Source: Macrostomum lignano (Eukaryota). Taken from it: 64,000 nucleotides of DNA. The DNA lies in NCBI GenBank assembly GCA_002269645.1, contig NIVC01001545.1, forward strand, positions 62,001 to 126,000. The letters are read 5' to 3'. Shown one piece after another: positions 8,736 to 61,486 of this stretch. Numbering within the stretch: the stretch's first letter is position 1; the number at the start of each line of letters is the position of its first letter. A program made the position numbers and the translations under genes. Under the pieces are notes generated by a model. That model made no database searches and was not told the origin of the DNA. It was given only the letters and a program-made list of their open reading frames with translations.

Positions 8736-11700
8736 ATGTCCGGTCGCGGTTCTCAGAAGCAGCAAGGCGGAGCCGCCAGCGCAGCAAAGCGACGTCGATT
8801 CAACGATGATGACGATGATGACGAAGATTACGGCAGGTCCACTTTTGAGCAGGTTGGTGGTTGCTATGGTGATTGCTCAGGGGAGCTGCGACCACTGCTG
8901 TGGTGTGGTCTGTCGGTGTGAACATTTTCTCATGTTTTTAGCTGCTCGTGTCATGGTCCTCATCCCGTGTCTTCTAGTTCCTTGATCCCGTGTCTTTTAG
9001 TCCCTTGATCCCGTGTCTTCTAGTCCCTTGATCCCGTGTCTTCTAGTCCCTTGATCAAATGTCTTCTAGTCCCTTAATCCTATGTCTTCAAGTCCCTAAT
9101 CTCGTGTCACAGGATGGATGGATTAAAGGCTTTGAGATGTTGTATCAGTAACTAAAATATACTGGATCAAGGACCTACAGTAATGGAATCAGAGGACTTT
9201 CAAGAAACTTAGTCAGGAACTTGAAGACGCGGGATCAAGGGATTTAAAGACATTAGTTGCCTTCAGCTTAATAAATCCTGTGAAAAAACTCCCCAGGAGC
9301 TGGCCATGTTCGAGGAGGAGGCAGACGCCGCCGCAGCCGAAGCCGCCGACGCCGCCGATGTCGCTGCGATCATTGACGCTGACGCCGCCTCCGCCGCGGC
9401 GGCTAACGCCGGTGCCGACGCCAAGAAATGGCGCCGGGCGCCGCTGCCGCATGCCGCAGACCCGGCCACCCAGCCGCTGGTGTTCCAGCAGATGGACTTG
9501 GACTGCTACACCCTGCCTGCGGCTGGCTCGGGCTCCGGCGCCAGCCCCGTAGTCCGCATGTACGGCATCACCGAGGCCGGGCACTCAGTCCTGGTGCATG
9601 TGCACGGATTCAATCCCTACTTCTTTGTGCCCGCGCCTGAGGGCTTCTCGCCTGCCGATTGTCATTCGTTTAAGCAGGCGCTCAATCAGGCTGTGCTCAA
9701 AGATCTGCGCGGGAATCGAGAGGGAATTGTTGAAGCCGTGGTTGCCGTCAGGCTGGTTGATAAGGAAAGCATCTACGGTTTCCATAGGAACAGGAAGCAG
9801 CCGTTTCTACGGGTGACCGTAGCGCTGCAGCGGCTGATGGCGCCGGCTAAGAGGCTGCTGGAGCAGGGGTTCTCCTGGCTGCAGGGCCGCGGCTCCCACT
9901 GTTTCAGCCTGTATGAGGCTAATATCGATTTTGAGATCAGGTTTATGGTGGATACCGGACTGGTTGGCTGTTGCTGGGTGAGTTGTGATTGTTTATCATG
10001 TGTATTTTTAATGTATTTTCGTGTGTTGATCATGTGCAATTCATGTGCTCTCTTGTGTTTACCATGTGTATATCATGTATTTTCGTGTGTTTAGCATGCG
10101 TATTTGATGTGCTCTCTTGTGTTTATCCTGTGTATTTTTTATGTATTTTTGTGTGTTTAGCATGCGTATTTGATGTGCTTTCTTGTGTTTACCATATGTT
10201 TATCATGTGTATATCATGTGTTTTCGTGTGTTAAGCATGTGCATATTATGTGTTGTCCTGTTTTAAACATGTGTATATCATATGCTTTCTTTGTTATAAG
10301 CATGTGCATTTTATGTGATTTTGTGTTTCAACATAATGTGCTTTCCTGTGCTCACCAGGTGGAGCTGCCGGCGGGCAAGTACACCCTGCGCGAGAAGGAG
10401 AACCGCTTGGCGCCTCAGTCGCGCTGCCAGCTCGAAGCCGACGTGGCCTCCTGGTCCGATGTGGTGGCGCACCCAGCCGAAGGCGTCTGGAGCAAAGTGG
10501 CCCCGCTGAGAATTCTCAGCTTCGATATCGAATGCGCTGGCAGGCGCGGGGTGTTCCCCGAACCCGAGCGGGATCCAGTCATCCAGATTGCCAACATGGT
10601 GGTGCGTCACGGCGAGACCGACCCGTTCATTCGGAATGTCTTCACCTTGGGCACCTGCGCTTCCATTGTTGGCTCTCAGGTGTGTTTTAGCTACTGTCTT
10701 GCTTGATCCCCGAAATCCCACTCCCTTCCCAGGTGTAGTCGATCTCTGATACCTATAGCTAATCCCCATCTCTTACCAGGTGCAATCAATCTCTGATCCC
10801 TATAACTAATCCCCATCTCTTCCCAGGTGCAATCAATCTCTGATCCCTATAATTAATCCCCATCTCTTCCCAGGTGTAATCCGATCTCTGATCCCTATAA
10901 TTAATCCCCATTTTTTTCGCAGGTGTAATCCGATATCTAATCCCTATAATTAATCCCCATCTCTTCCCAGGTGTAATCCGATCTCTGATCCCTATAATTA
11001 ATCCCCATCTCTTCCCAGGTGTAATCCGATCTCTGATCCCTATAATTAAGCCCCATCTCTTCCCAGGTGTAATCCGATCTCTGATCCCTATAATTAATCC
11101 CCATCTCTTCCCAGGTGTAATCCAATCTCTGATCCCTATAATTAAGCCCCATTTCTTCCCAGGTGTAATCCGATCTCTGATCCCTATAATTAATCCCCAT
11201 TTCTTCCCAGGTGCAATCAATCTCTGATCCCTATAATTAATCCCCATTTCTTTCCAGGTGTAATCCGATCTCTGATCCCTATAATTAATTCCCATTTCTT
11301 CCCAGGTGTAATCCGATCTCTGATCCCTATAATTAAGCCCCATTTCTTCCCAGGTGCAATCAATCTCTGATCCCTATAATTAATCTCCATTTCTTCCCAG
11401 GTGTAATCCGATCTCTGATCCCTATAATTAATTCCCATTTCTTCCCAGGTGTAATCCGATCTCTGATCCCTATAATTAATTCCCATTTCTTCCCAGGTGT
11501 AATCCGATCTCTGATCCCTATAATTAATCCCCATTTCTTCCCAGGTGCAATCAATCTCTGATCCCTATAATTAATCCAATCCTCAAGTTTACCCCCCCCC
11601 GCAAAAAATATCCAAATTTCATTAATAAATTCCTGTGATATATACTAATCTCCAAGTCCTCCAACCCTAACCCCAACTCACGCAGGTGCTGTCCTTCAAG

Positions 11701-14700
11701 ACCGAGTCAGACCTCCTAGCAGCCTGGTCGGCCTTCGTTCGCGACGTTGACCCGGACGTGATCACCGGCTACAACATTCAGAACTTCGACATGCCCTACC
11801 TGTTGAAACGGGCCGCCACTCTGAAAGTGCAACAATTCCCATTCTTAGGCCGAATCTCGGCCACTAAGTCCACCATTCGCGAGGCCCAGATCCAATCCAA
11901 GCAGATGGGCCGCCGCGAGAACAAATGGGTGAACATGGAGGGCCGGGTCCAGCTCGACCTGTTGCAGATTCTATTTCGAGACTACAAGCTGCGCAGCTAT
12001 TCGCTCAACGCAGTGTCCTATCATTTCCTGCACGAGCAGAAGGAGGATGTGCAGCATTCCATTATCACCGAACTGCAGAATGGCAACGAGCAGACGAGGC
12101 GCAGGCTGGCTGTCTATTGTCTCAAGGATGCCTACCTGCCTTTGAGGCTTATGGATAAGCTCATGTGCCTGGTTAACTATATGGAGATGGCCAGGGTCAC
12201 TGGAGTGCCGCTCACCTTTCTGCTGTCTAGGGGGCAGCAGGTGAGACTGCTTTTCTAATTGGCAAGAAATTTGTGAAGTACAAAGCGTTTTTCTCGGGGT
12301 GGCCTGGTAGGTCTTTGAATCCCACCGCTGCCACCAGTGAAATAGATGGGGTTTTTCTCGGGGTGGCCTGGTAGGTCTTTGAATCCCACCGCTGCCACCA
12401 GTGAAATAGAATGGGTTTTCTTCCCGGTTTAGGCCCTTGCGGATTACCTTCAGACTCGGGCCTCTTCAGTGGGAAGTTCTCTCAACTCTCTCAGTAGCGT
12501 AGGTAGTGCTGCCACCAGTTCCTTCAGGTCTCGGCCTTCGGTGAGGTGAGCTTCCCGTCGGAACGAAATAATGAAGTCAACGAACACAGCACGACGTGCA
12601 GATTTGCAGCTCAACGTATAAGGCGTCTCGTCAGCAGCACCTGCCGGGCTAGGATGGTAGAGGGAGGGCTGAGTTAGCCTCTCGTAGACTTGGATTGGTT
12701 TGGTCGGGTCTCAGTCGGAGCAATAGGAACAGAATCAATGTGCGCAAAGACTCGGACACTCGAGACTTAGTCACACGCGGACGTAGAACTCGAGGTTGAA
12801 CAGAAGGAAGACTCCTTGACGGAAACAAGGGGGAGAGGGCTCCTATTTATAGCCGGGAAATTCCCACGCTCCAGACCTCGTGACTTGTTCTATTTTTAGA
12901 ACTGACGTCACTCGAGAGTCTCAGGCAGGGTTCAAGCGCGCGGAAGACCTCGTGACTTGTTCTATTTTTAGAACTGACGTCACTTGAGGGTCCCCGGCAG
13001 AGTACACATGGCTGTGACTCAGTTGCTATTTTTAGCAACATGAGTCACTCCTCTCCTTAGGAAAGGGAGGGGTCCGAAAGCATGTGACTCACCCGGTAAA
13101 CAGGGCCAACGAGTGCAGTAAACATGTTTACTGCACTTTAAGACTCAAAGAACGCAAGAGCTGTCATGTGACTTGCTCACAAGACAGGGAAAACGGGACG
13201 GGAGCGAAACAGAGACAGCCCACAGTCGAGAGACTGAGGGCTGAGAACGGAAACGCAGCAGGGCGGAAAGGACACGGGGGCAACAGGCAAGCGAAAGGAG
13301 GGCGGGAAGCTGACCAGCGGCAGACAGCAACCCAGGGCGGAGGCGAGGGAACAGCTGACAAGGGCGACGCCTAACCATAAACTAGCGGCTCACTACACTC
13401 TCTTCGTTCAAATAAAGAGGCGGAGTGAAGGCGGAGCGCGCCTTTATTTAAAAAGTAAACTGCAGAAACAAAATTTTGATTGGCAAAGAGATGTTACACT
13501 GTCGGCGTAATGCACGGTTCGGCTGGGTCAGGGCCTTGATTGACCCTAAACGCATTGCGGGGGCGTCGGCCCGCCCTGAGAAAGACGCCTAAATGCCGGG
13601 TTGCCTTCGAATAATAGCAGAGCCCGTGGGGGGAAGAAAAGGGGTTACCGAGCAGGCAACGAGGACATTAAAAGAGAAGGCCACCAAGGGCTACATGCGC
13701 ACGGCTGGGCGAGGGCCGTATTGCCGCCCAAAAATTGCTGGCAAGACACGGAACAGACCGAAAAAAGGGGGGTGGGGCGCCGGCCCCGTCGTAAGAAAGA
13801 GGCGCCTAAATAGATGAGTAGGTGGGTTGCGGGAGTCAAATGCAGAGCCCACAATTCGGCAAGAGAAAAAAAAAGGGGGTCAAATGCGCCAGGAAGGCAA
13901 AAAGGACATGTCGATGGCGGGCAAGAGTCGCCCAAAACGCAGTGAAAGGCGCGGACTGCGCCTGAACAAACGCAGGCAGCGCTAAAAAGGCAAGGGCGCT
14001 AAATTAAGCGGGGCGCCTATTGATTCCGAGGTGGGCTGCAGTTCTTCGAGTCAATAGTTACTCCGCCCTGTCGCAATGCATCACAGCCTCAGGCACGGCC
14101 GGAGTGCGCCCAGCGATCTGGGCCGCTATGAGACGGGCGACAGCGCGGACAGTCTCCGGGTGCGGAGGGTTCCGCAACGTGGGCGCAGCCAGCTGAGCGG
14201 CCTCGTCCAGTAGCCGCTGTCGGTCGCCATCGCTCAGGGCACGGAGACAGGCCCATCGCGGCCAGTCCTCCAGGGTGGGCAGAGTGCCCAGTTGAGCGGC
14301 GGCTCTTAGCTGCTGCGCCAGGTAGTAAACTGCTTCGATATAGCGGTTTACCGCCGCCTGGACTTCCGGCGAAGGGTCTCGTGGCACTGGCTCCGTAGTC
14401 TCAATTGCGTTCACCGTTGCTGGCATGCCAGGCTGCTCCGGCGTGTTCGGCGGGGCCGGCGGTTCCGTGCTGCCGGGGGCCAAAGCCTGGCGGATCGCTG
14501 CAGCTAACTCGGTCCGGGTGCTCTCCTGTAGGTCGGGGTCTCCTGGGTGGTCCTCCGTCTGACACGCGGCCTCGGTCGTCCCCAGATCGTCTGCGGCCTC
14601 GACCTCAGGGACCGTGGGCAGCCATGAAATGTCGTCGCGCGGCGGCGAGGCCGGTTCCAGGCGGCAGTCAGGCCCGACGATCCTGCAGAGGAAAACTGGG

Positions 14701-17700
14701 GCGGTATCGACACTCGCCCTCGTTCCAGCGTTCTCAGCCGTCGCCTCTAGCCGTCGATCTTGGCGTTCTTTCTTGGCCGTCGGGGCCGCGGGCACGGATG
14801 ACGTTGGCTGCCGAGGTGAGAGCTGATATCGGACGGTTGCCAGGGCTGCTACGACGGAGTCCTTGGTAGACGGGCAGGCCTGTTGAGACTGGGTTGCCGG
14901 GCTGGTCATTGGCGAATCTGACCCGGTCAGGTCAATATAGATGGGAGCAGCCGTCCGCGGTCGGCGTTGCTCCTGGCCTTCGGACTTGCGGTCAGTTGTG
15001 GCGGGCTTGAGCAGTTCTCGGCCGTTACCCGCAGCTTCAAGTGCCTGGTTGCTCTCGACCTGGCGGCGGATCGACGCGATCCCCAGTGCGACTCCGTCGT
15101 GCAGGGCGGCTGGTGGAGCGGTTTGGCCTTCTGATGAGGTCGACGCGACACGACGGACGACGGTTGGGTTCTCCTCGGGCGTCCCCTCGGCACCGGCGGT
15201 CCGGTTGTGCCCCGGTCGTCGTCGTCGTCTGCGTGACCTTGAAGAGCGGCGCTGCTCCTCCGGCGGCGGTGTAGCTGGGCAGTTCCTCGGGTGAAACCCG
15301 AGCCTAAGCCGGGGAGGGACGCGCTGGACCTCCCTGTGCTCACCGGATTCCATCTGGCCGGCTGCTGCTCCGATCGGTAGAGCTGATTCCGCGTAATATC
15401 GGGCTCGGCGGAGGCGAGTTTCCGCCGAGGGAGAGCGCTCAGTGCGCTTAGACGAGCGGCGCGAGTGCATTTCTGCGCTGAAATGCGTTTTAGTTTGTGC
15501 GCGGATGCGGGCGGTGCGACTATCATAAGTCTTAGCCCTCGGATTAATAATCAGCCTCTCAGGCTGCCTACGATTCCTAGCCGGCCTACCGGCATCTACT
15601 ATTCCTACTGACGCTTCCACCGGAGTGGTGCATAGCGACGGCCCAGGGGTCTGGACCACAGAAAAGGCAGCACTGGGGGCGGGAGCAGAAACGGGAGGAA
15701 AAGAAACAGCAGGCATAGACGCATTAGGAACAGGCTCATGCAAATGGCATTCACCATACGGCACTGGCTCACGCCGAAGTGCACTTGCCTGGTTCGCTGG
15801 TGTCGTGACCGGTCCACCTCCTGGCTGCACCTCCGGGATCGCCAAAGGCCGGAAGTGCCATCGGAAGGCCGGCCTTGCGTCGTAGCCATCATCATCGTCA
15901 TCGTCGGGGTCGTCCTGGTCGTCCTCGGGGATCGGCGTCAGGGTCGCGGGTCCTGCGCCGTCGGAAACGTCGGGCGGTCGTCGACGCTTCTTCGGTTTGT
16001 CGACTTCAGGATCGGAAGTCCTCGTGTAGTCAGCGTCGGGCACGAGCAGAAGGTTCCGGCGATGGACGACTAGTTCGTCTCGTCTAGCTCTCGGGTTAGG
16101 CAGTCTCCGTCGTATCTTGTAGACGACCTCGCCCTTGGGCTCGACGACTTCGTATAAGGCTTTGCGAGGTCGATGAAATTTCGCCGCTTCGTCCGGTTTG
16201 AGCACCGGGTTGTTGAGGAAGACCAGATCGCCGGGTTGGAGCTTCTTGGCGGCGGGCAGGTTCGAGTAGTGCTCGTCTCGCAGTTGTTGGTGCAGGTGCA
16301 GGCGCTCCTTGGCCAGCTCAGTCGCCTCGTCCAGGCGACACTGGAAGTCTTTGACGTAGTCAGGCAGATCGGCGTACTCAGGCAGCTTCTTCAGTGCGTT
16401 GTCGATCGGGAGTCGGAAGTCACGGCCGAACACCAGGTAGTGAGGCGTGAAACCTGTCACCGGGTGGACGCTGGAGCGGAGAGCCATCAGGCAGGCTGGG
16501 AGGTAGGTATCCCAGTCGTTGTGGTTGCGCTCAAGGAGACAGGTGAGGACCTTCTTCAGTTGTTTGTTCAGATTCTCGACTTGTCCATTGGAAGCTGGGT
16601 TGTATGGTGTTGTTGTCGTATGCCGAATGCCAAACAAGTCGCAGAACTTCTTGAAGGCCGAACCGGTGAAGTTGGTGCCTTGGTCGGTGTGGATCCAGCA
16701 TGGTACACCGAACTCGGGGATGAAGCGCTCCTGCAGAAGCTTGATGACTGTTTTGGCTTTCTGGTTTCTCATCGGGTAGGCGAATGGATACTTCGACGTC
16801 GCATCGCACAGGGTCAGGATGTAGCGGTTGCCGCTCTTGCTCTTCTGCGCGATTGGTCCTACTACATCACAGTGTATTCTACCCAGAACTTCGCAAACTG
16901 GGAAGCTCTGGACCGGAACTCTCTCTCGCCGTCGCGATTTACTTTCAAGGCAGGTGCGGCACTTACTGATGAAGGTCTTGGTAGTACGGGCTAATCCGGG
17001 TCTCCAGAACCGTTCTCGTAGCCGCAGTAACGTCTTCGTCTCGCCGAGGTGTCCACACAGTGGGGAACTGTGGAGCTCCTGGAGCACCTGGGCGTCAAGG
17101 GCCTCAGGCAGAACAACCTTGGGCGGCTGCTGTCCATCAGTCAGATCAATCAGCAGCAGGCCGTTGTCCTCCTGCAGGTTCTCGTAGTATCCGAGCAGAT
17201 TCCGCTGCTTCTTAGTCAGTCGCAACCGGGCGTCGAACTCAGGCTTCGGGGCTTTGTTCTCGACCAGGTTGAGCACGTAGCTGATGGCTCGGTCAGCGCG
17301 TTGGGCGTCAACGAACTGTTGGCGAGTCATCGGCAGCTTCAGAAAATCAGAGAGCACGGCGCGGCATGGCTGAGGGGTCATGACTCCCGCAGTCTCCGCT
17401 CTAATGGCTCCAGGTCGATCACACGGCACCGTCTTGTCGGCGTCAGGATTAGGTCGCTCCGAGGGACTTTGTCTCACAACGTCGGCGTACGTCCGTTGAT
17501 CTAGAATCGAAGTTCTCTTCATCGCTCTCATGACAGAAAAATCCGCAGATGGAGCAGCGCGCATGCCTCCACTGCATAGCCCAGGCGACTCTTGGCTGTA
17601 GGGCGGGACGCAACACGTAAAGCACGCCTCGTCGCTGGCAGCCGTAGCCGTCGGCTCAATCGTAGTCAAAATTGGGTGAGTCTTCTCGTGCACTGGGCGG

Positions 17701-20700
17701 TGTCGCAAAGGGGGACTCGACTTTCCGCACAGGCGATGAGCAGTTGTCTGTCGGCCCGGGGGACAGAGCTTCGACCTTGCAGCTGGCGCGAGATTCTGGC
17801 CTCTGTCAACACGGCGAGAAATCTCAGCGAAAGGCTCGGCGGGGTTGTAGTTAAATTGCTTGCCTGGAGTTGCGTTGCGGGCCGTCATCAGAAGGGCTGC
17901 TGGTGCGGTGGCCTTTGAATCTTGGTCCGTGGGCGTCTCCAGAGTCCGAGACCTGTAGTCTTGGGCGTCGTCAAGGAGGTCTGTGTCCACAGTGGCCTCA
18001 AGGTCTTCGTCCAGGTTGGTCTCCAAGTAGCGGCAGTCGGCGTGGGCATCGTTGCAGAGGGCTGTTGTCACAGTGGCCTCTGAGTTGTCGTCCAGGCCGA
18101 ACTCCAGGCGTTGACTGCATCGGTGGGCGTCGTGCTGGAAGGCTGCTGGCGCGGTGGCTTCCAGGTCTTCGTCCAGGTCAGTCTCGGCCTCCAAGGAGCG
18201 AGAGTGGACAGTCTTCGGGAGGGCTGCTCTGGCAGTGGCCTCGGGTGTCGCGTCCAAGTCCGTTTCCAGGAAACGTCGGCGCTCAGTCTTGGGGCTGTCG
18301 CCGGCACCGGGTTGGGCTGCAGAACCGGGTGGTTCAAGGAGTCGGCCATGCTCGAAGGTGATCGGTGGTGTCTCCGGTCTTCTTGACAGGGCGTCGGCGT
18401 TGACGTGGTCCTTGCCTTTGCGGTGGTTGAGCTGGAAGCGGAACTCGCTTAGGCGTTCGATCCAGCGGCTTAAAATACCTGTGACCTGAGTCTGGTTCAG
18501 TAACCACAGTAAGGCCCGATGATCGGATCGAACTTCAAACTTCTTGCCAATTAAATAATGACGGAAATGTCGCATAGCGTCCACAATTGCAAGCAGCTCT
18601 TTCTTCGTGACCGTGTAGCGCTTCTCAGGATCGCGAAGTTTACGGCTAAAGAATGCAATTTGACGTTCGACGCCGTCGGATTGCAGTTGTCCAAGGCAAG
18701 CGCCTATTCGAATATCAGAGGCATCCGTGTCGAGGACAAACTTCACTGCAGGATGAGAATTAAATTCAGGCAGAGCGAGAACTTCAGTAGAACACAATTT
18801 CTTCTTCAAAGTGTCGAACGCTAACTGATGCTCGGGAGTCCAATGCTGCCGCAGGCTGCCAATGTCCTTTCGCGTCAGGGCATGCAGCGGCGCAGCCACT
18901 CCAGCGTAGCCGTCGACAAACTTGTGGTAGTAATTGGCGAGGCCTAGGAATTGTCTCAGTTGCGTAACGGACTGTGGCACGGGCCAATCACGGATCTGCG
19001 CAATCTTGTCCTCACAGGTCTTCAGGCCGTCGGGAGTCACGACGTGACCTAAATAATGCAGCTCCTTGAGGAACAAATGACACTTCTTCGGTTTCACTTT
19101 GAGGTTGGCTGCGATGATGCGCTGGAGTACAGTTCGCAATTATCCAGCTGTTCCTCAAAGTCACTGAGTGCACCACGATGTCGTCCATGTAGCCAAGCGC
19201 AGTCTTTGGCGTCAGGCCGTCCAGGAGCTTATTGATGCAACGCTGAAAGCTGCCGGGACTATCGTGGAGACCCATCGGTAGAACGTTAAAACAGAATTGG
19301 CCGCGGTCGATTACTGAGAACGCCGTCAGGTGCTGGTCGCAGTCCGCAGCGGGATCTGCCAGAATCCTTGAGCAAGGTCCAGGCTGGAATACCACTGAGC
19401 ACCACGAAGCTTCGCGAAGGTTTCCTGGATGTGCGGCAGCGGATACGGGTGATACACACACCTGTCGTTGAGAGCTCTGAAGTCGTGGACTAGTCGGATG
19501 TTGCCATCCTTCTTGGGCACGATGAGCATTGGCGAATTGTAGCTCGAGTAGGCAGGGCGAATGATGTGCTTCGCCAGCATCTCGTCTAGCAGGGCGTCGA
19601 GCTTGTCCTTCAGATGAGGCGGGATTCGGCGCGGTGGTAGCGCAACTGGTGTCCGGTCCTTCAAGATGATCTCGTGGGTCACCAGGTGAGTCAGGCCGGC
19701 GTCTAGCGGGTGCTTGGAGAAGGCCGCTTGACATTCGACTAGTAGATCTCGCACTCTTTGATGTTGTTCTTTGGACAATTCGCTGTTGATCTCGACTTCA
19801 TCTAGCCATGCTGTGCTGGACTCTTCAGAGTTCTTCGGGAGATGTCGCACTTCAGGTTCTGGCGTCTCGCTCAAGTACATCAGGTCGGCAGTTCGGAGTG
19901 GCGTCGCGACACCAACACGGATACCGGCTTGCAGAAACACTTCGCTGTCAGCGGTGTTGACGACCTCAATGTAGCCGCGACCTTCAGGCATCGTCATCAG
20001 AGCAGGCGCTGCTCCAGAGCGTTGCAGCTGGGATGCAGCCTCGACTTAACCAGCTCGACAATTGATGGCGATCCTCGATTCTCGGAATGGCCGTCATCCA
20101 ATCTGACGGGAAGCAGCGCTGAACTTCTAGGCGGCAGGGTGCACTTCTCGGAGGTGTACACTCGGCAGGTTTGAAGCTCACGACGCGAATAACGAACAGG
20201 GATACACGTGCCATTGTTGAACGTTAGCATTCCTTGAGCGAAGTCCAAGTTCTGGCAGTGCTCTCGCATAAACGATACGCCAAGCAAATTTTCACAATCG
20301 GAGACCGTGACGAGGAATTCGGTGTCCGCGACGACATCACCAAACTCCACGGGATGGTCACCTTACAAGCAAGTGGGAGCTGCGTCCCATCATACATAGT
20401 TACGCAATCGGGATTAGCATGCGATATAATACAACGAGGCATCCGGCGTCTAATAGCGGCCCAGGTTGACGAACCAAGGAAGTTTTTCCGGCTGCCGCTG
20501 TCTAGCAAGAAAGGGACCTCTCGACTCGCAACTCGACCTGTGACGTACGGATCGGCCTCACGCGCATGGATTTTTTGATTCGGGGAGGTGTCCACGAAAC
20601 CTCCGCACTCCGCGTCACTTACTGACGAGCGACTGTCGGACTGGGCATTGGCGCCTGCACAGCCGACATCCTCTTCTTCTGGTGACCTCTCGGAGTCTGC

Positions 20701-23700
20701 CAAGTAGCCTGGGCTTGGACCTCGCGGAGGGCGGTGCCGTTGTCGCTCTCCGCCTGGCCGTTTCCCTGGTTCTGGCGCATCGGGCACTGGGTGTTGCGAT
20801 GACCGGGCTGTCCGCAGCTATAGCAGATTATAGCTCTCTTTGGCGGGCTGGCTACCTGCTGTTGGTCACGCTGCACCAGGTGATCCAGCATTCGCTGCTG
20901 CTTCTCAATCAAGTCGGTTAGAGTCAGTAAGGCTTGGGCGGTGACGTCGGGTTTCGGGTCGCCGTCCTCCTCCCCGTCCAACATCCTAACCGGGGGTTGA
21001 GCAGATCGGTGCGCCAATTCTTTGGCGCCTTCTAGTCGTCGTAGCTCTCGAATCGCAGCAAGAAGATTGTTCGGGCGAACCCAGTACAGCCGTTCGCGCA
21101 GATCTGGAGTCGTCCGGATACCAGCAAGAATTGATCAGTAATCTCCTTCTCGCGGTCTTCAGGATGCATTCGAGGATATGCACGTTCACCCAGAGTTCTC
21201 AGGGCGTCAGCGAACTCTTCTGCTGACTCATTCTTGCCTTGTTGACGACGTCGCAACAGTTCTCGATACTCATCAGCACCACCATGACGGGCAAATCGCT
21301 CAATCAGACGTTGCTTGACCTCCTCGTAGCTGGCGAAACGCGGAAGATTCATACCAAGCAAGGCAGGATACGCAGTAGCCAAATCGAGACTCGCGATGAG
21401 GTGTTGCTTCATCTCGAACGGGTCGACGATGCGCTCCATCTCGCAACGCTGCTCGAACGCGGCAAGCCAGACATGAATGTCCTGACTTGGAGTAAACTTC
21501 ACAATTTTAACTTGTTTACTCACGGGCCGCTCCATCTGCTGCTGCAGAGCTGCCATCATGGTCCTGACGTCTTGGTGCGTGATGTTCCGGCCGATGTTGT
21601 CCAGGCCTTGCAAAAGCTCGTCTGGCGGGTCGTCGGACACGTCGCTTCTCGCACCTCGCCTCGGCGTTGGCTGCTGACCAAGGTCGTTGATCGCTGCTGC
21701 TGCTGCGGCGTCCGCTGCCGCAGGCCTCGAACTGCTGATGTGCTGATCCAGCCGGCTGCTGCACCGGCTTTCGTCTCGCTCGTTGAACATGTTGAACTCG
21801 TCGTAGTCGCTGGCCGAAGTCGTTCTCGAAAGAGCGGTTGTCTTGGGTGTGTCGTAGTCGGATCTCACCGCTGCGTCACCAGTGAAGTACAAAGCGTTTT
21901 TCTCGGGGTGGCCTGGTAGGTCTTTGAATCCCACCGCTGCCACCAGTGAAATAGATGGGGTTTTTCTCGGGGTGGCCTGGTAGGTCTTTGAATCCCACCG
22001 CTGCCACCAGTGAAATAGAATGGGTTTTCTTCCCGGTTTAGGCCCTTGCGGATTACCTTCAGACTCGGGCCTCTTCAGTGGGAAGTTCTCTCAACTCTCT
22101 CAGTAGCGTAGGTAGTGCTGCCACCAGTTCCTTCAGGTCTCGGCCTTCGGTGAGGTGAGCTTCCCGTCGGAACGAAATAATGAAGTCAACGAACACAGCA
22201 CGACGTGCAGATTTGCAGCTCAACGTATAAGGCGTCTCGTCAGCAGCACCTGCCGGGCTAGGATGGTAGAGGGAGGGCTGAGTTAGCCTCTCGTAGACTT
22301 GGATTGGTTTGGTCGGGTCTCAGTCGGAGCAATAGGAACAGAATCAATGTGCGCAAAGACTCGGACACTCGGGACTTAGTCACACGCGGACGTAGAACTC
22401 GAGGTTGAACAGAAGGAAGACTCCTTGACGGAAACAAGGGGGAGAGGGCTCCTATTTATAGCCGGGAAATTCCCACGCTCCAGACCTCGTGACTTGTTCT
22501 ATTTTTAGAACTGACGTCACTCGAGAGTCTCAGGCAGGGTTCAAGCGCGCGGAAGACCTCGTGACTTGTTCTATTTTTAGAACTGACGTCACTTGAGGGT
22601 CCCCGGCAGAGTACACATGGCTGTGACTCAGTTGCTATTTTTAGCAACATGAGTCACTCCTCTCCTTAGGAAAGGGAGGGGTCCGAAAGCATGTGACTCA
22701 CCCGGTAAACAGGGCCAACGAGTGCAGTAAACATGTTTACTGCACTTTAAGACTCAAAGAACGCAAGAGCTGTCATGTGACTTGCTCACAAGACAGGGAA
22801 AACGGGACGGGAGCGAAACAGAGACAGCCCACAGTCGAGAGACTGAGGGCTGAGAACGGAAACGCAGCAGGGCGGAAAGGACACGGGGGCAACAGGCAAG
22901 CGAAAGGAGGGCGGGAAGCTGACCAGCGGCAGACAGCAACCCAGGGCGGAGGCGAGGGAACAGCTGACAAGGGCGACGCCTAACCATAAACTAGCGGCTC
23001 ACTACATTTGGTAAATGGTAGAGGGGAGAGAGGGTAGATGGTAGAGGGGAGGAGGGGAAATGGTAGAGGGGAGAGAGGGTAGATGGTAGAGGGGAGGAGG
23101 GGAAATGGTAGAGGGGAGAGAGGGTAGATGGTAGAGGGGAGAGAGGGTAGATGGTAGAGGGGAGAGAGGGTAGATGGTAGAGGGGAGAGGGGGTATATGG
23201 TAGAGGGGAGAGAGGGTAGATGGTAGAGGGGAGAGAGGGTAGATGGTAGAGGGGAGAGGGGGTATATGGTAGAGGGGAGAGTGGGTAGATGTTAGAGGGA
23301 AGAGAGGGTAGATGGTAGAGGGGAGAGAGGGTAGATGGTAGAGGGGAGAGAGGGTAGATGGTAGAGGGGAGAGGGGGTATATGGTAGAGGGAAGAGAGGG
23401 TAGATAATAGAGGGGAGAGAGGGTAGATGGTAGAGGGGAGAGAGGGTAGATGGTAGAGGGGAGAGAGGGTAGATGGTAGAGGGGAGAGAGGGTAGATGGT
23501 AGAGGGGAGGAGGGGAAATGGTAGAGGGGAGAGTGGGTAGATGGTAGAGGGAAGAGAGGGTAGATGGTAGAGGGGAGAGAGGGTAGATGGTAGAGGGGAG
23601 AGAGGGTAGATGGTAGAGGGGAGAGAGGGTAGATGGTAGAGGGGAGAGAGGGTAGAGGGGAGAGAGGGTAGATGATAGAGGGGAGAGAGGGTAGATGGTA

Positions 23701-26700
23701 GAGGGGAGAGAGAGTAGATGGTAGAGGGGAGAGAGGTTAGATGGTAGAGGGGAGAGAGGGTAGATGGTAGAGGGGAGAGAGGGTAGATGGTAGAGGGGAG
23801 AGAGGGTAGATGATAGAGGGGAGAGAGGGTAGATGGTAGAGGGGAGAGAGAGTAGATGGTAGAGGGGAGAGAGGTTAGATGGTAGAGGGGAGAGAGGGTA
23901 GATGGTAGAGGGGAGAGAGGGTAGATGGTAGAGGGGAGAGAGGGTAGATGGTAGAGGGGAGAGAGGGTAGATGGTAGAGGGGAGAGAGGGTAGATGGTAG
24001 AGGGGAGAGAGGGTAGATGGTAGAGGGGAGAGAGGGTAGATGGTAGAGGGGAGAGAGGTGCAATAGTACAGGGGAGAGGGCGAATTGTAGAAGGAAAAAA
24101 GTTAAGTGTTGGATGGTAAAGAGGGTGAATGGTAGCAATAAAAGCTGGTAAATGGTAGAAGGGAGTGACTTGAACTGGTTAATGGGTAGGTAAATGATAA
24201 ATTGAAGAGCGGGTAAATGGTGGAACCGGGTGGGTAAATGGTAGAGACGAAGCGGTTAAATGGTAGAGGGTGAATAAGAGTGGTGCTACATTTTTCAGTA
24301 TCGGCGCTATGATTTCTTTAATGGCGCATGCATTGCCTTAGTCTAATAGTGGTCGGTCATCAATTCCGATATGTTGTGTAAATAACTTGCAACATTGCTT
24401 TATTTCTCATTCCCAGGTAAAAGTAATCTCTCAGCTTCTTCGCAAAGCCAAAGAGCAGGATCTGTTGCTGCCTACTCAGAAAGTTGAGCAGGGCGATGAG
24501 TACACGGGTGCCACAGTGATCGAACCTGTGAAAGGCTACTACACCACACCGATTGCTACTCTGGACTTCTCTTCTCTGTACCCGTCAATCATGATGGCCC
24601 ACAACCTGTGCTACACCACCCTGCTGGACCAGGCCTCCATAGCCAAGTACAGCCTGCAGCCAGACGAGTACATTAAAACACCATGCGGATCCTACTTTGC
24701 TAAGAAAAATGTTAGGAAAGGCCTGCTACCAGAGATTCTTGAGCAGTTGCTCAACGCTAGGAAGCGAGCTAAGGACGATTTGAAGAATGAAACTGACGAG
24801 TTTAAGAAGCGGGTAATTTATTGCTGCTGCTGCTGGGTTCTAGTCTAAAAGTTTTCCCTGAGAATATTCCTTAATTCTCCCTGAGATTAGACCTTAAATC
24901 TGCCTGAGAATAGACCTTTGATCTCTCTAAGAAAATACCTTAAATCTCTAAGAAAATACCTTAGATCTCCCTAAGAATAGACCTTAGATCTGCTTGAGAA
25001 GAGAGCTTGGATATCCCTGGGAATAATAGACCTTAGATCTCTCTAAGATAATACCTATATCGCCATGCGAATCAAATTAAAGCGACTAGACCTCAAATCC
25101 CAGTGAGACTAGACTTCAAATGAGATTAGACCACAAATGAGACTAGATCTCAAATGAGACTAGACCTCAAATCCCAGTGAGACTACCTCAAATCCCAGTG
25201 AGACTAGACCTCAAATCCCAGTGAGACTGGACCTCAAATCCCAGTGAGACTAGATCTCAAATCCCAGTGAGACTAGACCTCAAATCCCAGTGAAACTAGA
25301 TCTCAAATCCCAGTGAGACTAGATCTCAAATCCCAGTGAGACTAGACCTCAAATCCCCAATCCCAGGTGCTGGACGGTCGCCAGCTGGCCCTGAAGATCA
25401 GCGCCAATTCCGTATACGGTTTCACCGGAGCCCAAGTGGGCAAGCTGCCCTGCCTGGACATCTCTTCAAGTGTCACCGCATTCGGCCGGACCATGATTAT
25501 GGAAACTAAGCGATACGTTGAAGAGCGCTATACCGTTGCCAATGGCTACGCTCACGACGCCAAGGTGATCTACGGCGATACGGACTCGGTGATGTGCCGG
25601 TTCAATGCGGCCACGGTGGCTGATGCCATGAAGCTGGGCAGGGAGGCTGCGGATTACATTAGCAGCAAATTTCCACCCCCGATTAAGCTGGAGTTCGAGA
25701 AGGTGTACTGTCCCTATCTGCTTATCAACAAAAAGCGGTGAGTCGGGTTGGCTTTGAGCTGGCCTGAGAAATCGCCCTTCAATATCACCTGAGAATCGCC
25801 CTTACCTTATTGAACTTTCTTTAAAATCGACCTAGATTTCACCTAAAAATCGACCTAGATCTCACCTAAAAATCGACCTAGATCTCACCTGAAAATCGAC
25901 TTAAATGTCACCTAAGAATTGGCCTAAATCTCACCTTAGAATCGCCCCTAAATCTCACCTGAGATTTGCCCCAAAATCTCACCTGAGAATCGCCCCAACT
26001 TTCACCTGAGAATCGCTACCAAATCTCACCTGAGAATCGCTACCAAATCTCACCTGAGAATCGCTACCAAATCTCACCTGAGAATCGCTAACAAATCTCA
26101 CCTGAGAATCGCTACCAAATCTCACCTGAGAATCGTTACCAAATCTCACCTGAGAATCGTTATGAAATCTCACCTGGGACTCGTCCCTAAATCTCACCTG
26201 AGAATTGTTCCTAAATCTCACCTAGGAATCGCTACCTAATGTCACCTTAGAATCGTTATCAAATCTCACCTGGGACTCGCCCCCAAATCTCACCTGAGAA
26301 TCGTACCCAAATTTCACCTGAGAATTGCTACCAAATCTCACCTGAGAATCGCTACCAAATCTCACCTGAGAATCGCTACCAAATCTCACCTGAGAATTGC
26401 TACCAAATCTCACCTGAGAATCGCTAACAAATCTCACCTGTGAATCGCTACCAAATCTCACCTGAGAATCGCTACCAAATCTCACCTGAGAATCGTTACC
26501 AAATCTCACCTGAGAATCGCTAACAAATCTCACCTGTGAATCGCTACCAAATCTCACCTGAGAATCGCTACCAAATCTCACCTGAGAATCGTTACCAAAT
26601 CTCACCTGAGAATCGCTAACAAATCTCACCTGTGAATCGCTACCAAATCTCACCTGAGAATCGTTACCAAATCTCACCTGAGAATCGTTACCAAATCTCA

Positions 26701-54020: not shown

Positions 54021-55387
54021 TTTAACAAAAAGTCTACAAAACAAAACATTTTGACTCAAGAAGATAACCTAGTGCTTAAACAACTGCAAATTAAATTAGA
54101 AAATAAAAGAAACACTTAATTGTCTTTGTAATATTATATTTTGTCTTTTTTCAGAGCAACAATACTTAATCGTTATTGAAAGTACTAACGCTAGACTGTT
54201 TCACATTAATAAAAATTGGAGTTTGCTAGTGTTTTATTGTACTTTTTTAGGTATATTTTATAAGTTTCTAGGTTTATAATATAGTTTACTAAAAGTATCT
54301 TTGTTTTACTCTACCTGTTTCGAATATTTTTTCAATTTTTAACATTAATAATGTGGTAGGGCGATCTACCACTGACCGACGAACGTGATGACGCCGTGTG
54401 GTGACACTTGCTCATGACTCTCTGTTTTTCCGTCACTCGGTGCGCCGTCCCTTGCCCCATCCCTCACCCCATCTTTTGCCATTGCTCAATTGTTTGTTAA
54501 TTCCCGTTTGCGGCTTTAGTGTCGTCCGCTGCCCCATCGTCTGCCCCATTCCTTGCCCCATCCTTCGCCTTCCTGCCCCATCTGTTGCCCCATCCCTGTC
54601 CGGACGACATTGTTTCCCCTATTTATAAGACCATTTCGGGCTGCCTTTTGGTTTGTTCGCGCGCGCGCATTTTTTTCCGTATTTGTCGTTTTTCCTCGTG
54701 TAAACTCCGTGGTTTGTGCTCGTTCATTAGTGTTTGTGTTTATCCAGTTTCTGTTTAGTGTTTATAGTTTTTGCCTCTGCTAAGTAAGTTTTAATAGTTT
54801 CGCTTAATAGTTAGTCGTTCGGCACCCGGCACCGGCCGTGGACATCTTGTGAAATTAATATTTTTCTCTAATAACTACCGCCTGCGCAATTAACAATTGA
54901 GGCAGAATCCTTATAAACTATTTAAACTATAAAACTATAAACTATTTATAAAGTTTAGTTTATAGTTTAGTTTAAACTATAAACTATTTATAAACTATTT
55001 AATCCTCCGACCCTAAGGAAGCCGTACAGGCTAACAATAGACATTAGGCATTAAGAGATTAGGTATTAGGGAAGTAGATTAGTTACCGCTAGACAACCTT
55101 GATGCCCGGAAAACGCTAGACTTTCGGACTGAATTAGGGAATTAGACAGTGTCTTACCACTCGGGCACTACACGCTATCACAAGGTTTTCTAAGAAATCG
55201 TGTGAGTTAGGAATTCCTAGGAAAAATTCATAGTTTTGAATATTTAAAGTAGAAATTTAGTAATTTTAGACAGACAACTAGGTCTACAGCACGATGAAAT
55301 AATAGGACAGGAGTTTCCCCTGGAACAACTTGGTGGCAGCGTAAAGGGATCAAGAAACCAGCGGAAAACTAACTAGATAAGTGAAAA

Positions 55388-56332
55388 ATGGCAGGAATTA
55401 ATGACGCACTAGCGTTACTAGCCGAAGAACTTAGGAATCGTCTAGAAATAGGACTGGCAAGGCATGTGAGAATTCAGAAGTACACGCCAAGCCAAGACAT
55501 TAGGATCTGGTTGACAGCTTTTGATCAGAGGTGTGAATCAGAAGGAATTGAGGAGAATCATAGGAAAACTGAGCTATTAGCTAATTTAGGCTTAGCAACA
55601 GCGTTCGCCGCTGTACAACGACTTAATCTGCCAGAAGATCTAGGGTATGAAGAATTCAAGGAGCACTTGATCGAGAGATTTGGTAGAATAGGAAATGCGT
55701 CAGAGTTTAGGGAAGAGTTTAGAGGCAGAATGCAAGGAAGGAATGAGTCAAAGGACGCTTATGCTGATGCACTGATTGAGCTATCAGATAGGGCCTTCCC
55801 GAACATGAATGCAGAACAGCGAGAGGAAGAGATAGTAGAGCAGTTTATTAAAGGAGTTAGGATTCCGCCAGATACTAGGGAGGAGTTAATCTTCGCCCAA
55901 CCTGCGAATCTGCAAGAAGCTAGGCGAATGCTAAGGCGAATTGAGGCCGCATGGCAACTATCGCACAAAGGAGGTGTTAGGATGATGAAAGAGGGAGAAG
56001 GAGAGCAAGAGAAGAAGCTCCAAGATTTAGTTCAACAGCAGAAGAGTGAGTTAGAGCAACAGAAGAAGCTGATTCAGGAGCTGATGGTGCACAAGCCACC
56101 ACCTATGGTTAGACTACAGCCATGCCCAGCTCAGATGCCGCAACGGAATTATCAGCAGCAACCGGTGTTTCAGCCGAGATTTCCGGCATATTATCAGCCT
56201 AGACCTAGGAGAGAGTTTCCGATTCGCTCTTATTCGCCGCAGCCAGGAAGGTGTGCGATTTGCCAGCAACCCGGCTCAATAAGGCCTGGTATAGGTCACC
56301 AGTGCCGAGTGAATCGCAAACAGGGAAACTAG
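55388..56332 (+). CDS. Gypsy gag (element 2)
   Basis: KYTPSQDIRIWLTAFDQRCE...QGRNESKDAYADAL..EQFIKG; ends GGA AAC TAG at a slippery site. Confidence 0.88.
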   Translation: MAGINDALALLAEELRNRLEIGLARHVRIQKYTPSQDIRIWLTAFDQRCESEGIEENHRKTELLANLGLATAFAAVQRLNLPEDLGYEEFKEHLIERFGRIGNASEFREEFRGRMQGRNESKDAYADALIELSDRAFPNMNAEQREEEIVEQFIKGVRIPPDTREELIFAQPANLQEARRMLRRIEAAWQLSHKGGVRMMKEGEGEQEKKLQDLVQQQKSELEQQKKLIQELMVHKPPPMVRLQPCPAQMPQRNYQQQPVFQPRFPAYYQPRPRREFPIRSYSPQPGRCAICQQPGSIRPGIGHQCRVNRKQGN

Positions 56333-58526
56333 AGTACAGAGGGTGGCATGAGAGGCCACGACCCTCTAGGAGAAATGAGTACAAAATGAAGGCCTCTAAT
56401 TGTAAATATAGTGTAGATAGTGAAGGTTGGCGAACAGTCCCAATGCGAAAAAGACACATGGGTGGTGTGCATGTAAATAATGCTTTTGCACCAGCACCAA
56501 TTTCCACTTATTCTGCGTCAGCACCTCATGCGTATGCACCAGCCGCATCATCATGTGTCAATCCTGCTTATGCTACTGAAAACCTAGCACCAGTAGTAAA
56601 AGAAAAATCCGAACCCGATTTTCGCCAGCCAAAGCCTAAGAAAATAGTTAAGCAAAAGGTTTTTCTGAAACCGAAAGTTGAATTAATAAACCAGACAGGC
56701 TATGAAGCAATAGTAGTATGCAGTATTGATAATCAAGAAGTAGACTTTCTAATAGACACAGGCGCTCAAAATAATTTCCGAAGCAGATTAGTTTGGTCAA
56801 AAGTATTTGAGCCGAATCAGATTAGAGAGACAAGTAGGAGAGTTTCCACATTTGATGGAACTACAGTGAAATTAGAAGGAGAAGCGAGTACTTTAGTGCA
56901 GTTCGGAGATTTAGAATTAGAAATAGAATTTCTACTTTGCAGCCACGATTGTGACAACATATTAGGCATGGAATTCTTTAAAGATCGCTGTGAGAGCATC
57001 CAATTAGCCAAAGGCATGTTAATTTTTAAAAGAGGGGACTTGTATTGTAATCCCATGCAGTATACTCATTTGCCAGTAAAAGTCTGCCGAGTATATACTC
57101 AGGAGAGAACAGTAGTTCCGCCTAATAGCGCACTGCGAGTTCCAGTTAGATTAGCCAACAATTCAGAAACTAATTATGGTACGCCAATGACTATTGAGAC
57201 TATTGGAAGTAGTATAAGAACTAAAGGCAAGACATTAGACATGAATCCGACCTTAGTTACTATGCGCGATGGCGTAGCCATAGTAGAAGTAGTGAATCAA
57301 AGCACGGTAGAGGTGAAATTGCCGAAATCAACCTTAGTAGGTTTAGCTAAGCCAATCAGAACTAGAGAGCTCACCTACATGAATGGTGGAGTAGATCAAA
57401 CCGTGCCACCAGATCAGCCAATCACCGGACGTGTCAATCAAACGCAATCTACAAGTGAAACTCGGATTAGCGAAATAGATATTAGCGAAAATTTGACCGC
57501 AGAACAGAGAGATAGAGTGATTCAGCTCGTAAAAGAGCATAGAGAGGCCTTTTCGCAACATGATCTAGACATGGGCTTAACATCGTTAGTCACGCATGAG
57601 ATCTCATTAAGAGACGAGACACCTGTTAGGATTCCAACCAGAAGGATCCCCCCTCATCTGCAGAAACAGGTAGATGCCCAGCTAGATGACATAATAGCTA
57701 AGAACTTAATTAGGCCATGCTATTCTACTTATTCAACACCTTTAGTGATTGTACCAAAGAAAGATGGTACTATTCGAATAGTTAGTGAATTTAGAGTGCT
57801 GAATTCACGAGTGAATTACTTTCCGTATCCGCTGCCAAATATTCAGGAGACATTTTCGAACTTAACAGGCAGTCAATACTTTAGCAGCCTTGACCTGAAT
57901 TCTGGTTATTGGCAAGTTCCGATAAAAGAGGAACACAAGTTTATGACCGAATTCTCAACATTAACAAGAGGTCAGTTTGAGTACCAAGTTATGGCTCAGG
58001 GCTTATCTAATGCCCCAGGTACTTTTCAAAGGCTTATGAATCTAGTATTAGCAGGCATTCAGCATAAATATGCCATGTCATACATAGACGACATAGTGAC
58101 CTATTCTAAGCAGTTTGAAGATCATTTAGAACACCTCAGAGAGGTATTTAAAAGACTAATTAGTGCAGGACTGAAGCTAAGAGCTAAGAAGTGCAATCTA
58201 TTCCGCAGTAGAAAAGCATGTGGCAGAGTGCATCCCATGCTTAGAGAGCGAAAGAGGCCATAAAGTGCAAGCTCCGATTCAGTCATTTCCAATTAGTGAG
58301 CCGTTTCACCGATTACACATAGATGTGATAGGGCCAATTTCTCAGATTAGCAAAAGAGGCCATCAATATGTGTTAACAATAGTAGACAGCAATACTCACT
58401 ATCCATTCGCATTTCCAATGCGCAACCAAAAAGCTGACACAATTATTAAGCTATTGCAAGAAAGAGTATTCAGTGAATATGGCCAATACCACTGGATTCA
58501 CACAGATAATGGCAAAGCATTCACTA
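56323..58526 (+). pseudogene. Gypsy pol remnant (element 2): protease and RT to KKCNLF, joined near 58210 to an integrase fragment that ends at HTDNGKAFT
   Basis: FLIDTGA protease, YFSSLDLNSGYWQVP, YIDD; then C.PC, LHIDVIGP, YPFAFP in a different frame. RNase H is absent. Confidence 0.88.
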
Positions 58527-59081
58527 CACTGTGAATCAAAAAGGTCCAACGGAGGTCCAAATTTATAATTTGGACTTTTGTCATCTAGAGGTCCATTTTT
58601 ATAAAAATGAAAAAAGGCTTTCTATTCCATTAAAAAGCCATGTTTAATTACAATTTGTGTACCAATTGTTATATGATCAAATTCACGTAATGTTATCAGC
58701 AGTAACTGCATTTACAACTGGAATTTGTTTAGGGGACTTGGCTTTCATTTTTGAAAATAATGAAAGGAAATGTTAGTGCTAATAACGTTGTGCAAAAACA
58801 TTTACTGCTATTGATAATATAGTATCTAAGAGTTAGGAGTCTTGGTTAATTAATAATTATGTAATCGTTCTGCGTTAATATTTTGCCACTGTTATAATGC
58901 CTGCGTTCAAAAGCAATACATACAGACTGGACAAACCGTCCATTTTTCCAGCTTTTTTAAACTGATTTGCCCTCCCTGACGGTAGTGAAGTCAAAGCTTA
59001 CGTTCACACTTACTTCAGGCCTCATTAATTAATGTAAAGTCGAATAGATATTAGATATTTTGTCTTAGAAATAGGATTTTC

Positions 59082-61486
59082 ATGGAACAGGATATGGATA
59101 GGCATCTTGCTTCTAAATCTAATCATAAGAATAGTGAAATAAATATAAAATGTACATTTTGTTCATTTTCATGTCATAGTATTTTTAAGGTTATATCTCA
59201 TATTAAGTTTACACATTCATTTGGATGTCACTGTTTTACCTGCCCTATCTTAGATTGTTTTTTATAGTAGTGGTTCAATAGAAGCTTTAAGAGCTCATGC
59301 TTATCATATGCATAGTCAACTTACTAATGTTGATTCGTATGTTATGTCTAATTTAGAAAATGCTCTGAAAACTGAGGATGAAAAAAATGAAACAGTTGAA
59401 GTCTGTCCTGATCATTGTCAACCTAGTCTTAATGGTACCAATGAGCCTAATAATGGCTTAAATGAAGAAAATGAAAGTATTCCAACAATAAATCCAGAAA
59501 AAATAACATGTGATACCCTTCGAGACAATATAAGAAAAAACCTTGCTAAAAACTTTGTATACTATTATTTCAAATGTGAAAATGCATTTTTTATTTCTAA
59601 AGAAAAGTCTAATCAGTTATGTGAATTGGTAAAAGAAATGGTTTCACAATTTGCTCATGATTATCTCTGCCTATTTGAACAGTTTTTAAAGGAGGAATAT
59701 CCATCTTTTAGTAAAAACTTAATTAATAATCAGTTTAATATGCAAGAAATGATTGATATCTCATTAGAATTTTTATTAACTGATTCAAAGGTCTTTGATA
59801 TTCTAAAACATCAATATAACTTAGTTCAGCCAATAGAAATTGTCCACCCAGAGATGGGTTCTAAAATCCAATATATCCCAATAGCTGAAATGCTTGCTTC
59901 AATAATAAAAAATGAACATTTGATGAAATTTATTGTTGAGCCATGTATCAATAATTATAACTTTTTTACATCAACCTATTTTAAAGAATGTATATCATCA
60001 TTGGTAACCAGTGACAGTGGGATTTTTTTGAAACTGTACTCAGACGAAATTGAAGTTTGTAATCCAATTGGATCAGCCAAGACAAAGCATAAGCTATGTG
60101 TTATTTATTATAGTATTCTTAATTTTCCTGAATACTTGAATTCATCATTAGAATTATCTTTCTTGTCAACTAGTTTTTCTGAGTCTACAATAAAGAAAGC
60201 AGGCTTACAATTTTGCTTGTCTCCATTAATTGCTGAGCTTAATGATCTATATTATAAGGAATTTGAAATAAATACTTCTTTAACACTGCCTGTTGTGGCT
60301 TGCTTTATGACTGGGGATAATCTATCTATGCATCAAATGTTAGGTTTACAGAAATGCTTTTCTAGTGGGTATGTATGCAGGTTTTGTTATAAGGAATATA
60401 GACAGCTTTGTAGTATAAATATTCAACATTTAGATACACTCTTTCAATTTAATTATAGGACCCATTTATCAAATATCAATGATTCACAACAATTAAACAA
60501 TGGCTTTGTTAGAAATTCAGCTTTTGAGGGTTTGTCTTATATTGATTTGCAATATTTTTTCCTACCTGATATTATGCATGATGATTTGGAACGATTTTCA
60601 CATCTGGTTGTGTGTCTTGTACTATTAAATGCTATGGAAAAAATCATGTAAGCATGGATTTATAAATGAACAATTTAGCAAAATTTATGATATGTCACTT
60701 CCTAAGCTAAGCAAATATAACATAAAAAACTTTCATTTGCCATGCACTGCTAGTCAAATGATAGTCATCTTACAATATTTTGGTTTACTTTTTGGGGATT
60801 TATTTGATTATGATGATGACATTTGGATATTATTCTGCAACCATAAGCTTTTTCTTAATATTATATTATCACCATATTATGATAAGGATGTTGATATTGA
60901 TTATTTTAAGTTTTTAGTAGCAGCACAACTTGAAACTATATATAAATACACTGACTTTAACCCAAAATACAAATGTAAACTATATTATATCTGCCATTAT
61001 CCAGAATTATACCATTATTTTAGTGGTCTAGGGTATCTTTGGTGCATGCGAAGTGAGGCCCAACATCAGGTAATAAAGAATATAAGTAGACAATGTAAAA
61101 ACTATAATAATGTTGCCTTTACATGTGCAAAAAACTTTCAAATTCAAAAGGCTTTAGTTGTTACACATTTCATGCCCCATGATCTAAAAGAAGCAAAGTG
61201 TAGTAGTATAATTAAAATCAGTTCAATTTTAACAACTCCTGAGAAAATCAAACTAAGTAATACACTCAATGTCAAATTTGATTCATTAGGCCAGATTTGC
61301 TTCTCAACCACAGTTCTAAATTTTAGAGGATTTCATTATAAAACTCCAACACTTAATAAAAGATATTGCTTGGCTATATTTAAAGATAGCTATATTGATT
61401 TAATAATGATTTCTTGCATCATTAAGGTCACAAACAAATGGGTTCTCATTTGCATAAAGATTAAAGCTACATTTTCAACCCATTAA
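59082..61486 (+). pseudogene. EnSpm/CMC-type transposase, broken into three ORFs (59082-59267, 59308-60651, 60629-61486)
   Basis: N-terminal C2H2-like fingers; LYSDEIEVCNPIGSAKTKHKL..YYS, GDNLSMHQMLG..F..GYVCRFC, PDIMHD, HYPELY, WCMRSEAQH. These are motifs typical of animal EnSpm transposases, partly degenerate. Confidence 0.8.

Follow-up and report, generated by a model that had tools for sequence, protein, structure and literature searches.

The element and its LTR modules

The window, by which we mean the whole stretch of 64,000 nucleotides analysed here (Macrostomum lignano contig NIVC01001545.1, positions 62,001 to 126,000), contains a young Ty3/gypsy retrotransposon on its reverse strand (Table 1). 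The element has direct long terminal repeats (LTRs) with TG...CA ends and is flanked by a short target-site duplication (TSD). The domains detected by Pfam run from a CCHC knuckle through reverse transcriptase (RT) and RNase H to integrase, which is the Ty3/gypsy order, and the match to Ty3 Gag-Pol had an E value of 1.1e-54; a protease was undetected by Pfam in the single frame scanned. A primer-binding site (PBS) complementary to the 3' end of a host tRNA adjoins the 5' LTR, and it is imperfect here but a perfect 18-mer at 14 of 65 junctions of the family. The gag and RT regions are broken across frames in this assembly. Because contigs of other sequencing runs (4 of 24 runs were compared) differ by single-letter indels, some of these breaks may be assembly errors. 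The insertion lies antisense to a host exon of a family-B DNA polymerase, which we take to be delta-like, 33 bp past a donor-like GT at 12241 whose role as a splice site is suggested by the consensus.

Table 1. Features of the element and of the adjoining host exon, in window coordinates
Feature	Position	Strand	Remarks
LTR retrotransposon, Ty3/gypsy	12274-23006	-	LTR pair, domains
5' LTR	21883-23006	-	1124 bp, TG...CA ends
3' LTR	12274-13397	-	1 mismatch to the 5' LTR in 1124 bases
TSD TTTG, left copy	12270-12273	+
TSD TTTG, right copy	23007-23010	+
Boundary PBS	21862-21881	-	tRNA-Leu pairing: 5 bp, 2-nt bulge, 9 bp, mismatch, 3 bp
Distal module, 5' LTR	21883-21946	-	PBS, anti-PBS spacer, copy of U5 end
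Proximal module, 5' LTR	21947-22010	-
Inner PBS	21926-21945	-	20-nt complement of the tRNA-Leu 3' end
Inner PBS	21990-22009	-	20-nt complement of the tRNA-Leu 3' end
Anti-PBS	21907-21920	-	predicted 12-bp hairpin with inner PBS; also 21971-21984, 12298-12311, 12362-12375
Distal module, 3' LTR	12274-12337	-	PBS 12317-12336
Proximal module, 3' LTR	12338-12401	-	PBS 12381-12400
10-nt PBS half-site in U5	22117-22126	-	also 12508-12517
gag region	20619-21790	-	first ATG after a TATA-like box, at 21790; CCHC zinc knuckle; multiple frames in assembly
RT pieces	19012-20045	-	PF00078, two frames
RNase H, then integrase	14058-19139	-	1693 open codons; best solved relative Ty3 Gag-Pol
Family-B DNA polymerase exonuclease-domain frame, host exon	11671-12240	+	Pfam

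Two stretches were without a Pfam match, one of about 440 residues separating the RNase H domain from the integrase domain and one of about 800 past the integrase core. The LTR-to-LTR spacing across the family ranges from about 8.0 to 9.6 kb. The window also holds a second Ty3/gypsy-type element on the forward strand (about 54350-61500). Its Leu-type PBS, at 55331, is 11 nt long; the element also has a protease and an RT, and by eye its gag start looks like that of the first element. Minisatellite arrays with units of 13-59 bp are numerous between 1000 and 51000, and one of them (about 23010-24060) abuts the 5' LTR.

Each LTR carries two 64-bp units at its U5 end, the pair in one LTR lying 9609 bp from the pair in the other. 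An earlier note made from the sequence alone had described these units, and we confirmed them; 59 of the 64 bases are shared between the two. The inner 20-mer occurs at the four places given in Table 1 and nowhere else in the window. Reading along the element strand, a module consists of the PBS, two extra bases that match the tRNA, a short linker, an inverted degenerate PBS (the anti-PBS, which agrees with the tRNA end at 11 of 15 bases) and a copy of the U5 end. The inverted copy, and a 10-nt half-site further upstream, were absent from the earlier description. Because further decayed modules are present in a sister subfamily, the half-site is likely to be an older decayed module. The hairpin predicted between anti-PBS and inner PBS was matched by 66 of 2000 shuffles of the spacer, and shuffles of the whole unit gave z values of -1.4 and -1.65.

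The alternative LTR ends that had been proposed exist, in that LTRs of the family end after 0, 1, 2, 3 or 4 modules. Among 101 further LTR loci that were read (15 without the LTR start in view, duplicates retained), the distal end is matched by a 4-bp TSD in 19 of 27 module-free LTRs, in 38 of 53 one-module LTRs and in 5 of 6 two-module LTRs. The genome contains 255 exact matches to the spacer core, many of them in solo LTRs, and 389 to the U5 anchor. Modules were present at 39 of the first 100 anchors, so that about 60% of LTRs have none. They occur in both subfamilies, and their number is unclustered on the LTR trees. Tandem elements with a common middle LTR were also seen (G000 C1903, C2137 and C3668; L050, L051, L053, L059, L060), and in C1903 and C2137 the last LTR is that of another haplotype and has one module.

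The proposal that the LTR grew by duplication of the PBS was not borne out. None of 110 inner sites is bulged and 83 are perfect, a sample biased towards intact sites because the search for most of them required the spacer to match exactly, and the spacer differs from the leader. The modules are therefore not duplicates of the working PBS. A donor family with the module spacer as its own leader was sought and none was found in 60 loci drawn from the first 100 of the 255 cores. As a guess, the modules could have arisen by fold-back of plus-strand strong-stop DNA. We found no description of tandem PBS modules within an LTR in the open-access literature. The modules are unusual and look like mostly idle passengers.

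The boundary PBS and its tRNA

The sequence at 21881-21862 reads as the earlier note had claimed, with a 2-nt bulge and a mismatch against the tRNA. The same 20-mer is present at 33 places in the genome and a contig of another run (X3 record 30) spans the site without a gap, so the window copy does not owe the site to an assembly error. A pattern search of the genome with the first 20 leader bases yielded 65 family junctions, all of which were read. Bulged sites made up 48 of them: 33 are exactly the window 20-mer, 4 have the bulge, the mismatch and a further change, and 11 have the bulge only. The unbulged junctions comprise 14 perfect 18-mers and 3 with small changes, and the mismatch without the bulge was found at none of the 65. 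The bulge is older than the mismatch substitution.

Grouping by shared flanks reduced the 65 junctions to 55, and removal of 3 duplicates or tandem partners left 52 independent insertions, a conservative set because one bulged insertion (C3668) was dropped. The bulge is present in 37 of the 52, which is above one half (p 0.003); 26 have bulge and mismatch, 11 the bulge only, and 15 are unbulged. The sister subfamily, with 81-84% identity across leader and gag start, is bulged at the corresponding position in 6 of 17 loci, representing 3 insertions by flank. Several bulge variants exist. Every junction class includes copies with identical LTRs, indicating that all classes are still being made. 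The bulged boundary site is thus an old, family-wide allele, and neither decay nor the drift proposed in the earlier note describes it. The commonest PBS of the family is imperfect and is common to many young copies.

The last 12 U5 bases (21883-21894 and their counterparts in relatives) are mosaic and highly variable, with 25 forms in 51 insertions; the first 12 leader bases have 2 forms, and the first 12 LTR bases have 4 in 46 insertions. This variable end is possibly a switching hot spot where minus-strand synthesis starts. Part of the sister subfamily (L333, L334, L337, L340, L344, L347) has 30-50 extra bases between the PBS and the usual leader start, and these include short repeats ending in GGAT.

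The earlier note had matched the inner 20-mer to the 3' end of tRNA-Leu(AAG/UAG). Host tRNA-Leu genes with this 3' end were found in all 12 loci of a pattern search (7 AAG, 5 TAG), in agreement with that assignment. The predicted energy of pairing with tRNA-Leu was -26.0 kcal/mol for the site with bulge and mismatch, -32.9 with the bulge only and -39.0 for the perfect site. The bulged site keeps 17 bp of pairing, and the mismatch faces nucleotide 4 of the 18-nt 3' tRNA fragment.

Priming and inheritance of the PBS

If synthesis is primed at the most distal site, both LTRs of an insertion should carry all of its modules. The 3' LTR was found for 54 of the 65 junctions. Of these paired rows, 30 are module-free on both sides, 20 have equal numbers of modules (18 insertions, 11 of them bulged), 2 have one module on the 5' side only and have TSDs (C163, C2478), and 2 belong to one tandem array with unlike LTRs. 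Thus 18 of 20 paired module-bearing insertions are symmetric, suggesting that the inner sites rarely prime. The claim that the last cycle of the window element was primed at the imperfect distal site fits all 11 independent bulged, module-bearing insertions with paired LTRs, each of which has the same number of modules on both sides. As judged from these sequences, the distal site appears to be used nearly always, either in cis or on a co-packaged RNA. Backup priming by the inner copies, which had also been proposed, is at most occasional (2 of 20). Both cases have a second explanation, since C163 and C2478 each have a module-free, bulged sister with 0 leader and 0-2 LTR differences and may be fresh module gains.

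The predicted opening cost was 17.0 for inner sites (25 sites) and 12.0 for bulged sites (26 sites), whereas the median predicted net binding of the tRNA, with the hairpin opened, was -22.0 and -14.0 kcal/mol, respectively. Because net binding favours the inner sites, folding alone has no power to explain distal priming, and we infer that leader context or kinetics must matter.

Perfect or otherwise unbulged boundary sites occur in 15 of the 52 insertions and in 6 of the 30 that are module-free, short of the roughly 50:50 inheritance of the primer copy seen in retroviruses. The perfect allele is unclustered on all three trees. On the leader tree (48 of the 52 rows, four with broken or short leaders being omitted) the perfect label required 14 changes for 15 rows, compared with a shuffled mean of 13.0; on the R-U5 and U3 trees (46 rows each) it required 12 and 13 changes for 14 rows, compared with 11.9 and 12.0. 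Perfect alleles are scattered among close relatives, and perfect and bulged copies that differ at 0-2 of 900 leader bases were found as pairs (C2478/C73, C163/C2457, C659/C702, C2525/C702). That the perfect allele travels with one of its flanks was considered and was not seen on the leader, R-U5 or U3 trees. An allele bound to neither flank would fit regeneration from the tRNA, and copying of the tRNA appears repeatedly to restore the perfect site. The alleles would be scattered, too, if template switching were heavy on each side of the PBS; the leader and LTR trees disagree, indicating that recombination is common.

For perfect copies lacking modules, no bulged sister lies as near as 9 differences. 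Six perfect copies have a bulged sister at 7 differences or fewer, and all 6 carry more modules than the nearest such sister, but an association between a perfect boundary and module gain was not significant (Fisher p 0.13; median p 0.375 for independent pairs). Repeated origin of one and the same bulge is improbable, and yet the bulge is in the majority, suggesting that perfect copies leave fewer descendants.

Proposed mechanism and alternatives

On balance we favor, with somewhat better than even confidence, a reading in which the bulged boundary PBS primes with tRNA-Leu and is kept by selection, and in which the inner copies, carried in 0-4 modules, prime rarely. The bulged allele is the majority and is common to the sister subfamily. 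Minus-strand synthesis would begin at the distal site, so that every module is inherited by both LTRs. The plus strand would then copy the tRNA and replace or mend the site in up to about 30% of insertions; replacement of the whole site would yield the perfect allele, and mending of the mismatch only would yield the bulge-only allele. Perfect copies would have to leave few descendants, as otherwise the bulge would be lost. Strand transfer out of register, from one PBS copy to another on co-packaged RNAs, may add and remove modules, while the predicted anti-PBS hairpin and the absence of the leader context would keep them mostly idle. By analogy with mouse endogenous retroviruses (ERVs), the advantage of the bulge may be escape from 3' tRNA fragments. 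Against this model, the hairpin is just modestly above chance, reversion is below the retroviral proportion, and Ty1 and Ty3 are reported to lack primer inheritance.

The perfect inner sites might instead be selected as decoys for 3' tRNA fragments, or as reserve priming sites, that shield the bulged site. The many perfect and never bulged inner sites, the 255 cores with many in solo LTRs, the occurrence of modules in both subfamilies, and the 3' LTRs of C163 and C2478, which end at an inner site and are flanked by TSDs, are in keeping with such a role. We nevertheless consider it unlikely: about 61 of 100 LTRs and 24 of the 37 bulged insertions have no module, and the two asymmetric insertions may be gains, as noted above. 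Bulged sites show no enrichment of modules (13 of 37, versus 9 of 15 unbulged; Fisher p 0.13), which are, if anything, commoner with perfect boundaries. The inner sites are predicted to be folded, although net binding is still -22 kcal/mol, and one would expect silencing to be attracted by a perfect target located on the same RNA. We put little weight on the idea that bulged RNAs are not primed at all and receive their strong-stop DNA from another, co-packaged RNA whose boundary site is perfect, with template switching shuffling the alleles. The weaker pairing of the bulged site and the frequent recombination are consistent with it, but the majority of copies are bulged, and close bulged sisters retain LTR and leader together (C73 and C423 are identical in both).

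In retroviruses, U1 controls polyadenylation in the 5' LTR. The substitution in the boundary PBS creates a GT(A/G)AG motif at 21868, the sole one in the scanned stretch downstream of the TATA-like box, and it could have been kept as a splice-donor-like U1 site just past the 5' LTR, acting in splicing or as a block to early polyadenylation. This is compatible with the model that we favor. We assign it a slight probability, given that no joint at 21868 was present among 15 of 41 joints (in contigs whose status as RNA is a guess) and that the bulge, the older change, would be left unexplained. Finally, a second primer might exist to which the bulged site is exactly complementary, namely a tRNA, or an RNA resembling one, that the assembly lacks. 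The 33 identical copies of the site would suit such a primer, and an Rfam tRNA search scored 63 of 61,948 candidates and so covers a fraction of the host tRNA set. A host tRNA matching the boundary site perfectly, which the earlier note had named as refuting a degenerate PBS, was not found with exact and 2-mismatch patterns. All 33 exact matches to a 15-mer of the site are element junctions (30 read, 3 by place). A pattern anchored in the T-loop gave 63 matches, all with 2 mismatches and mostly junctions; 6 of the others were read and none is a tRNA gene, 3 having been scanned without a tRNA and 3 read without a PBS start. Since several bulge variants also exist, we regard a second primer as very improbable. 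A likeness of the bulged site to the end of tRNA-Trp gave 3 matches, with no tRNA at the match, and was dropped.

A mismatched PBS with reversion is already known from mouse ERVs; here it is found in a class reported to behave otherwise. In the mouse ETn, MusD and IAP elements, as described in section 4.3 of PMC7472051, the commonest PBS is mismatched, indels are tolerated and perfect revertants are scattered over the whole tree, reversion being ascribed to primer copying and the advantage to escape from 3' tRNA fragments. The present family resembles them in its most common imperfect PBS and in the spread of perfect and imperfect alleles across the tree. It differs from these mammalian Retroviridae in belonging to Ty3/gypsy, in having a bulged allele that exceeds one half and spans two subfamilies, and in its PBS modules inside the LTR, which that section does not mention (PMC7472051). 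With yeast Ty3 and Ty1 it has in common the Ty3-type domain order, priming from a tRNA 3' end and the persistence of an imperfect PBS (PMC5371799). Ty1 and Ty3 are, however, stated to inherit strictly their PBS and not the primer sequence (PMC7472051), and the passages on Ty1 and Ty3 in PMC5371799 describe a bipartite PBS and report that the primer sequence is not inherited, whereas in the present family perfect alleles recur at tree tips. Nor is a bipartite PBS apparent here, since pairing of the tRNA body with spacer, leader or U5 was not above shuffles in four nearby stretches (for the best, 50 of 500 shuffles were as low). The Drosophila Gypsy element likewise has an extra site besides the working one; it is described as having two tRNA-Lys2 binding sites, the second of which binds the primer although cDNA synthesis can proceed without it (PMC1635307). 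Gypsy has one site per genome end, as opposed to a variable tandem array in U5 in which each copy has an LTR-end motif and an anti-PBS (PMC1635307).

A fuller reading, which we hold tentatively and think less likely than not to be right in all its parts, is that this family has partial primer inheritance, unlike yeast Ty3, that the bulge has been held across two subfamilies because tRNA-Leu fragments silence perfect copies, and that the self-masked modules form a reversible ladder of LTR lengths.

The family-wide pattern tells more than the single copy suggested. A perfect PBS match can lie inside an LTR, and calling the boundary from the best PBS would then leave the LTR 64 to 256 bp too short. 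Dozens of very young insertions in one genome show four PBS states (a perfect site, the bulge only, bulge with mismatch, and a masked inner copy), which makes the family a natural experiment. It bears on whether Ty3/gypsy elements inherit primer sequence and on whether tRNA fragments shape PBS evolution beyond mammalian ERVs. If the fuller reading is true, it would represent a case of priming being traded off against silencing outside the mammalian retroviruses, legible in one genome.
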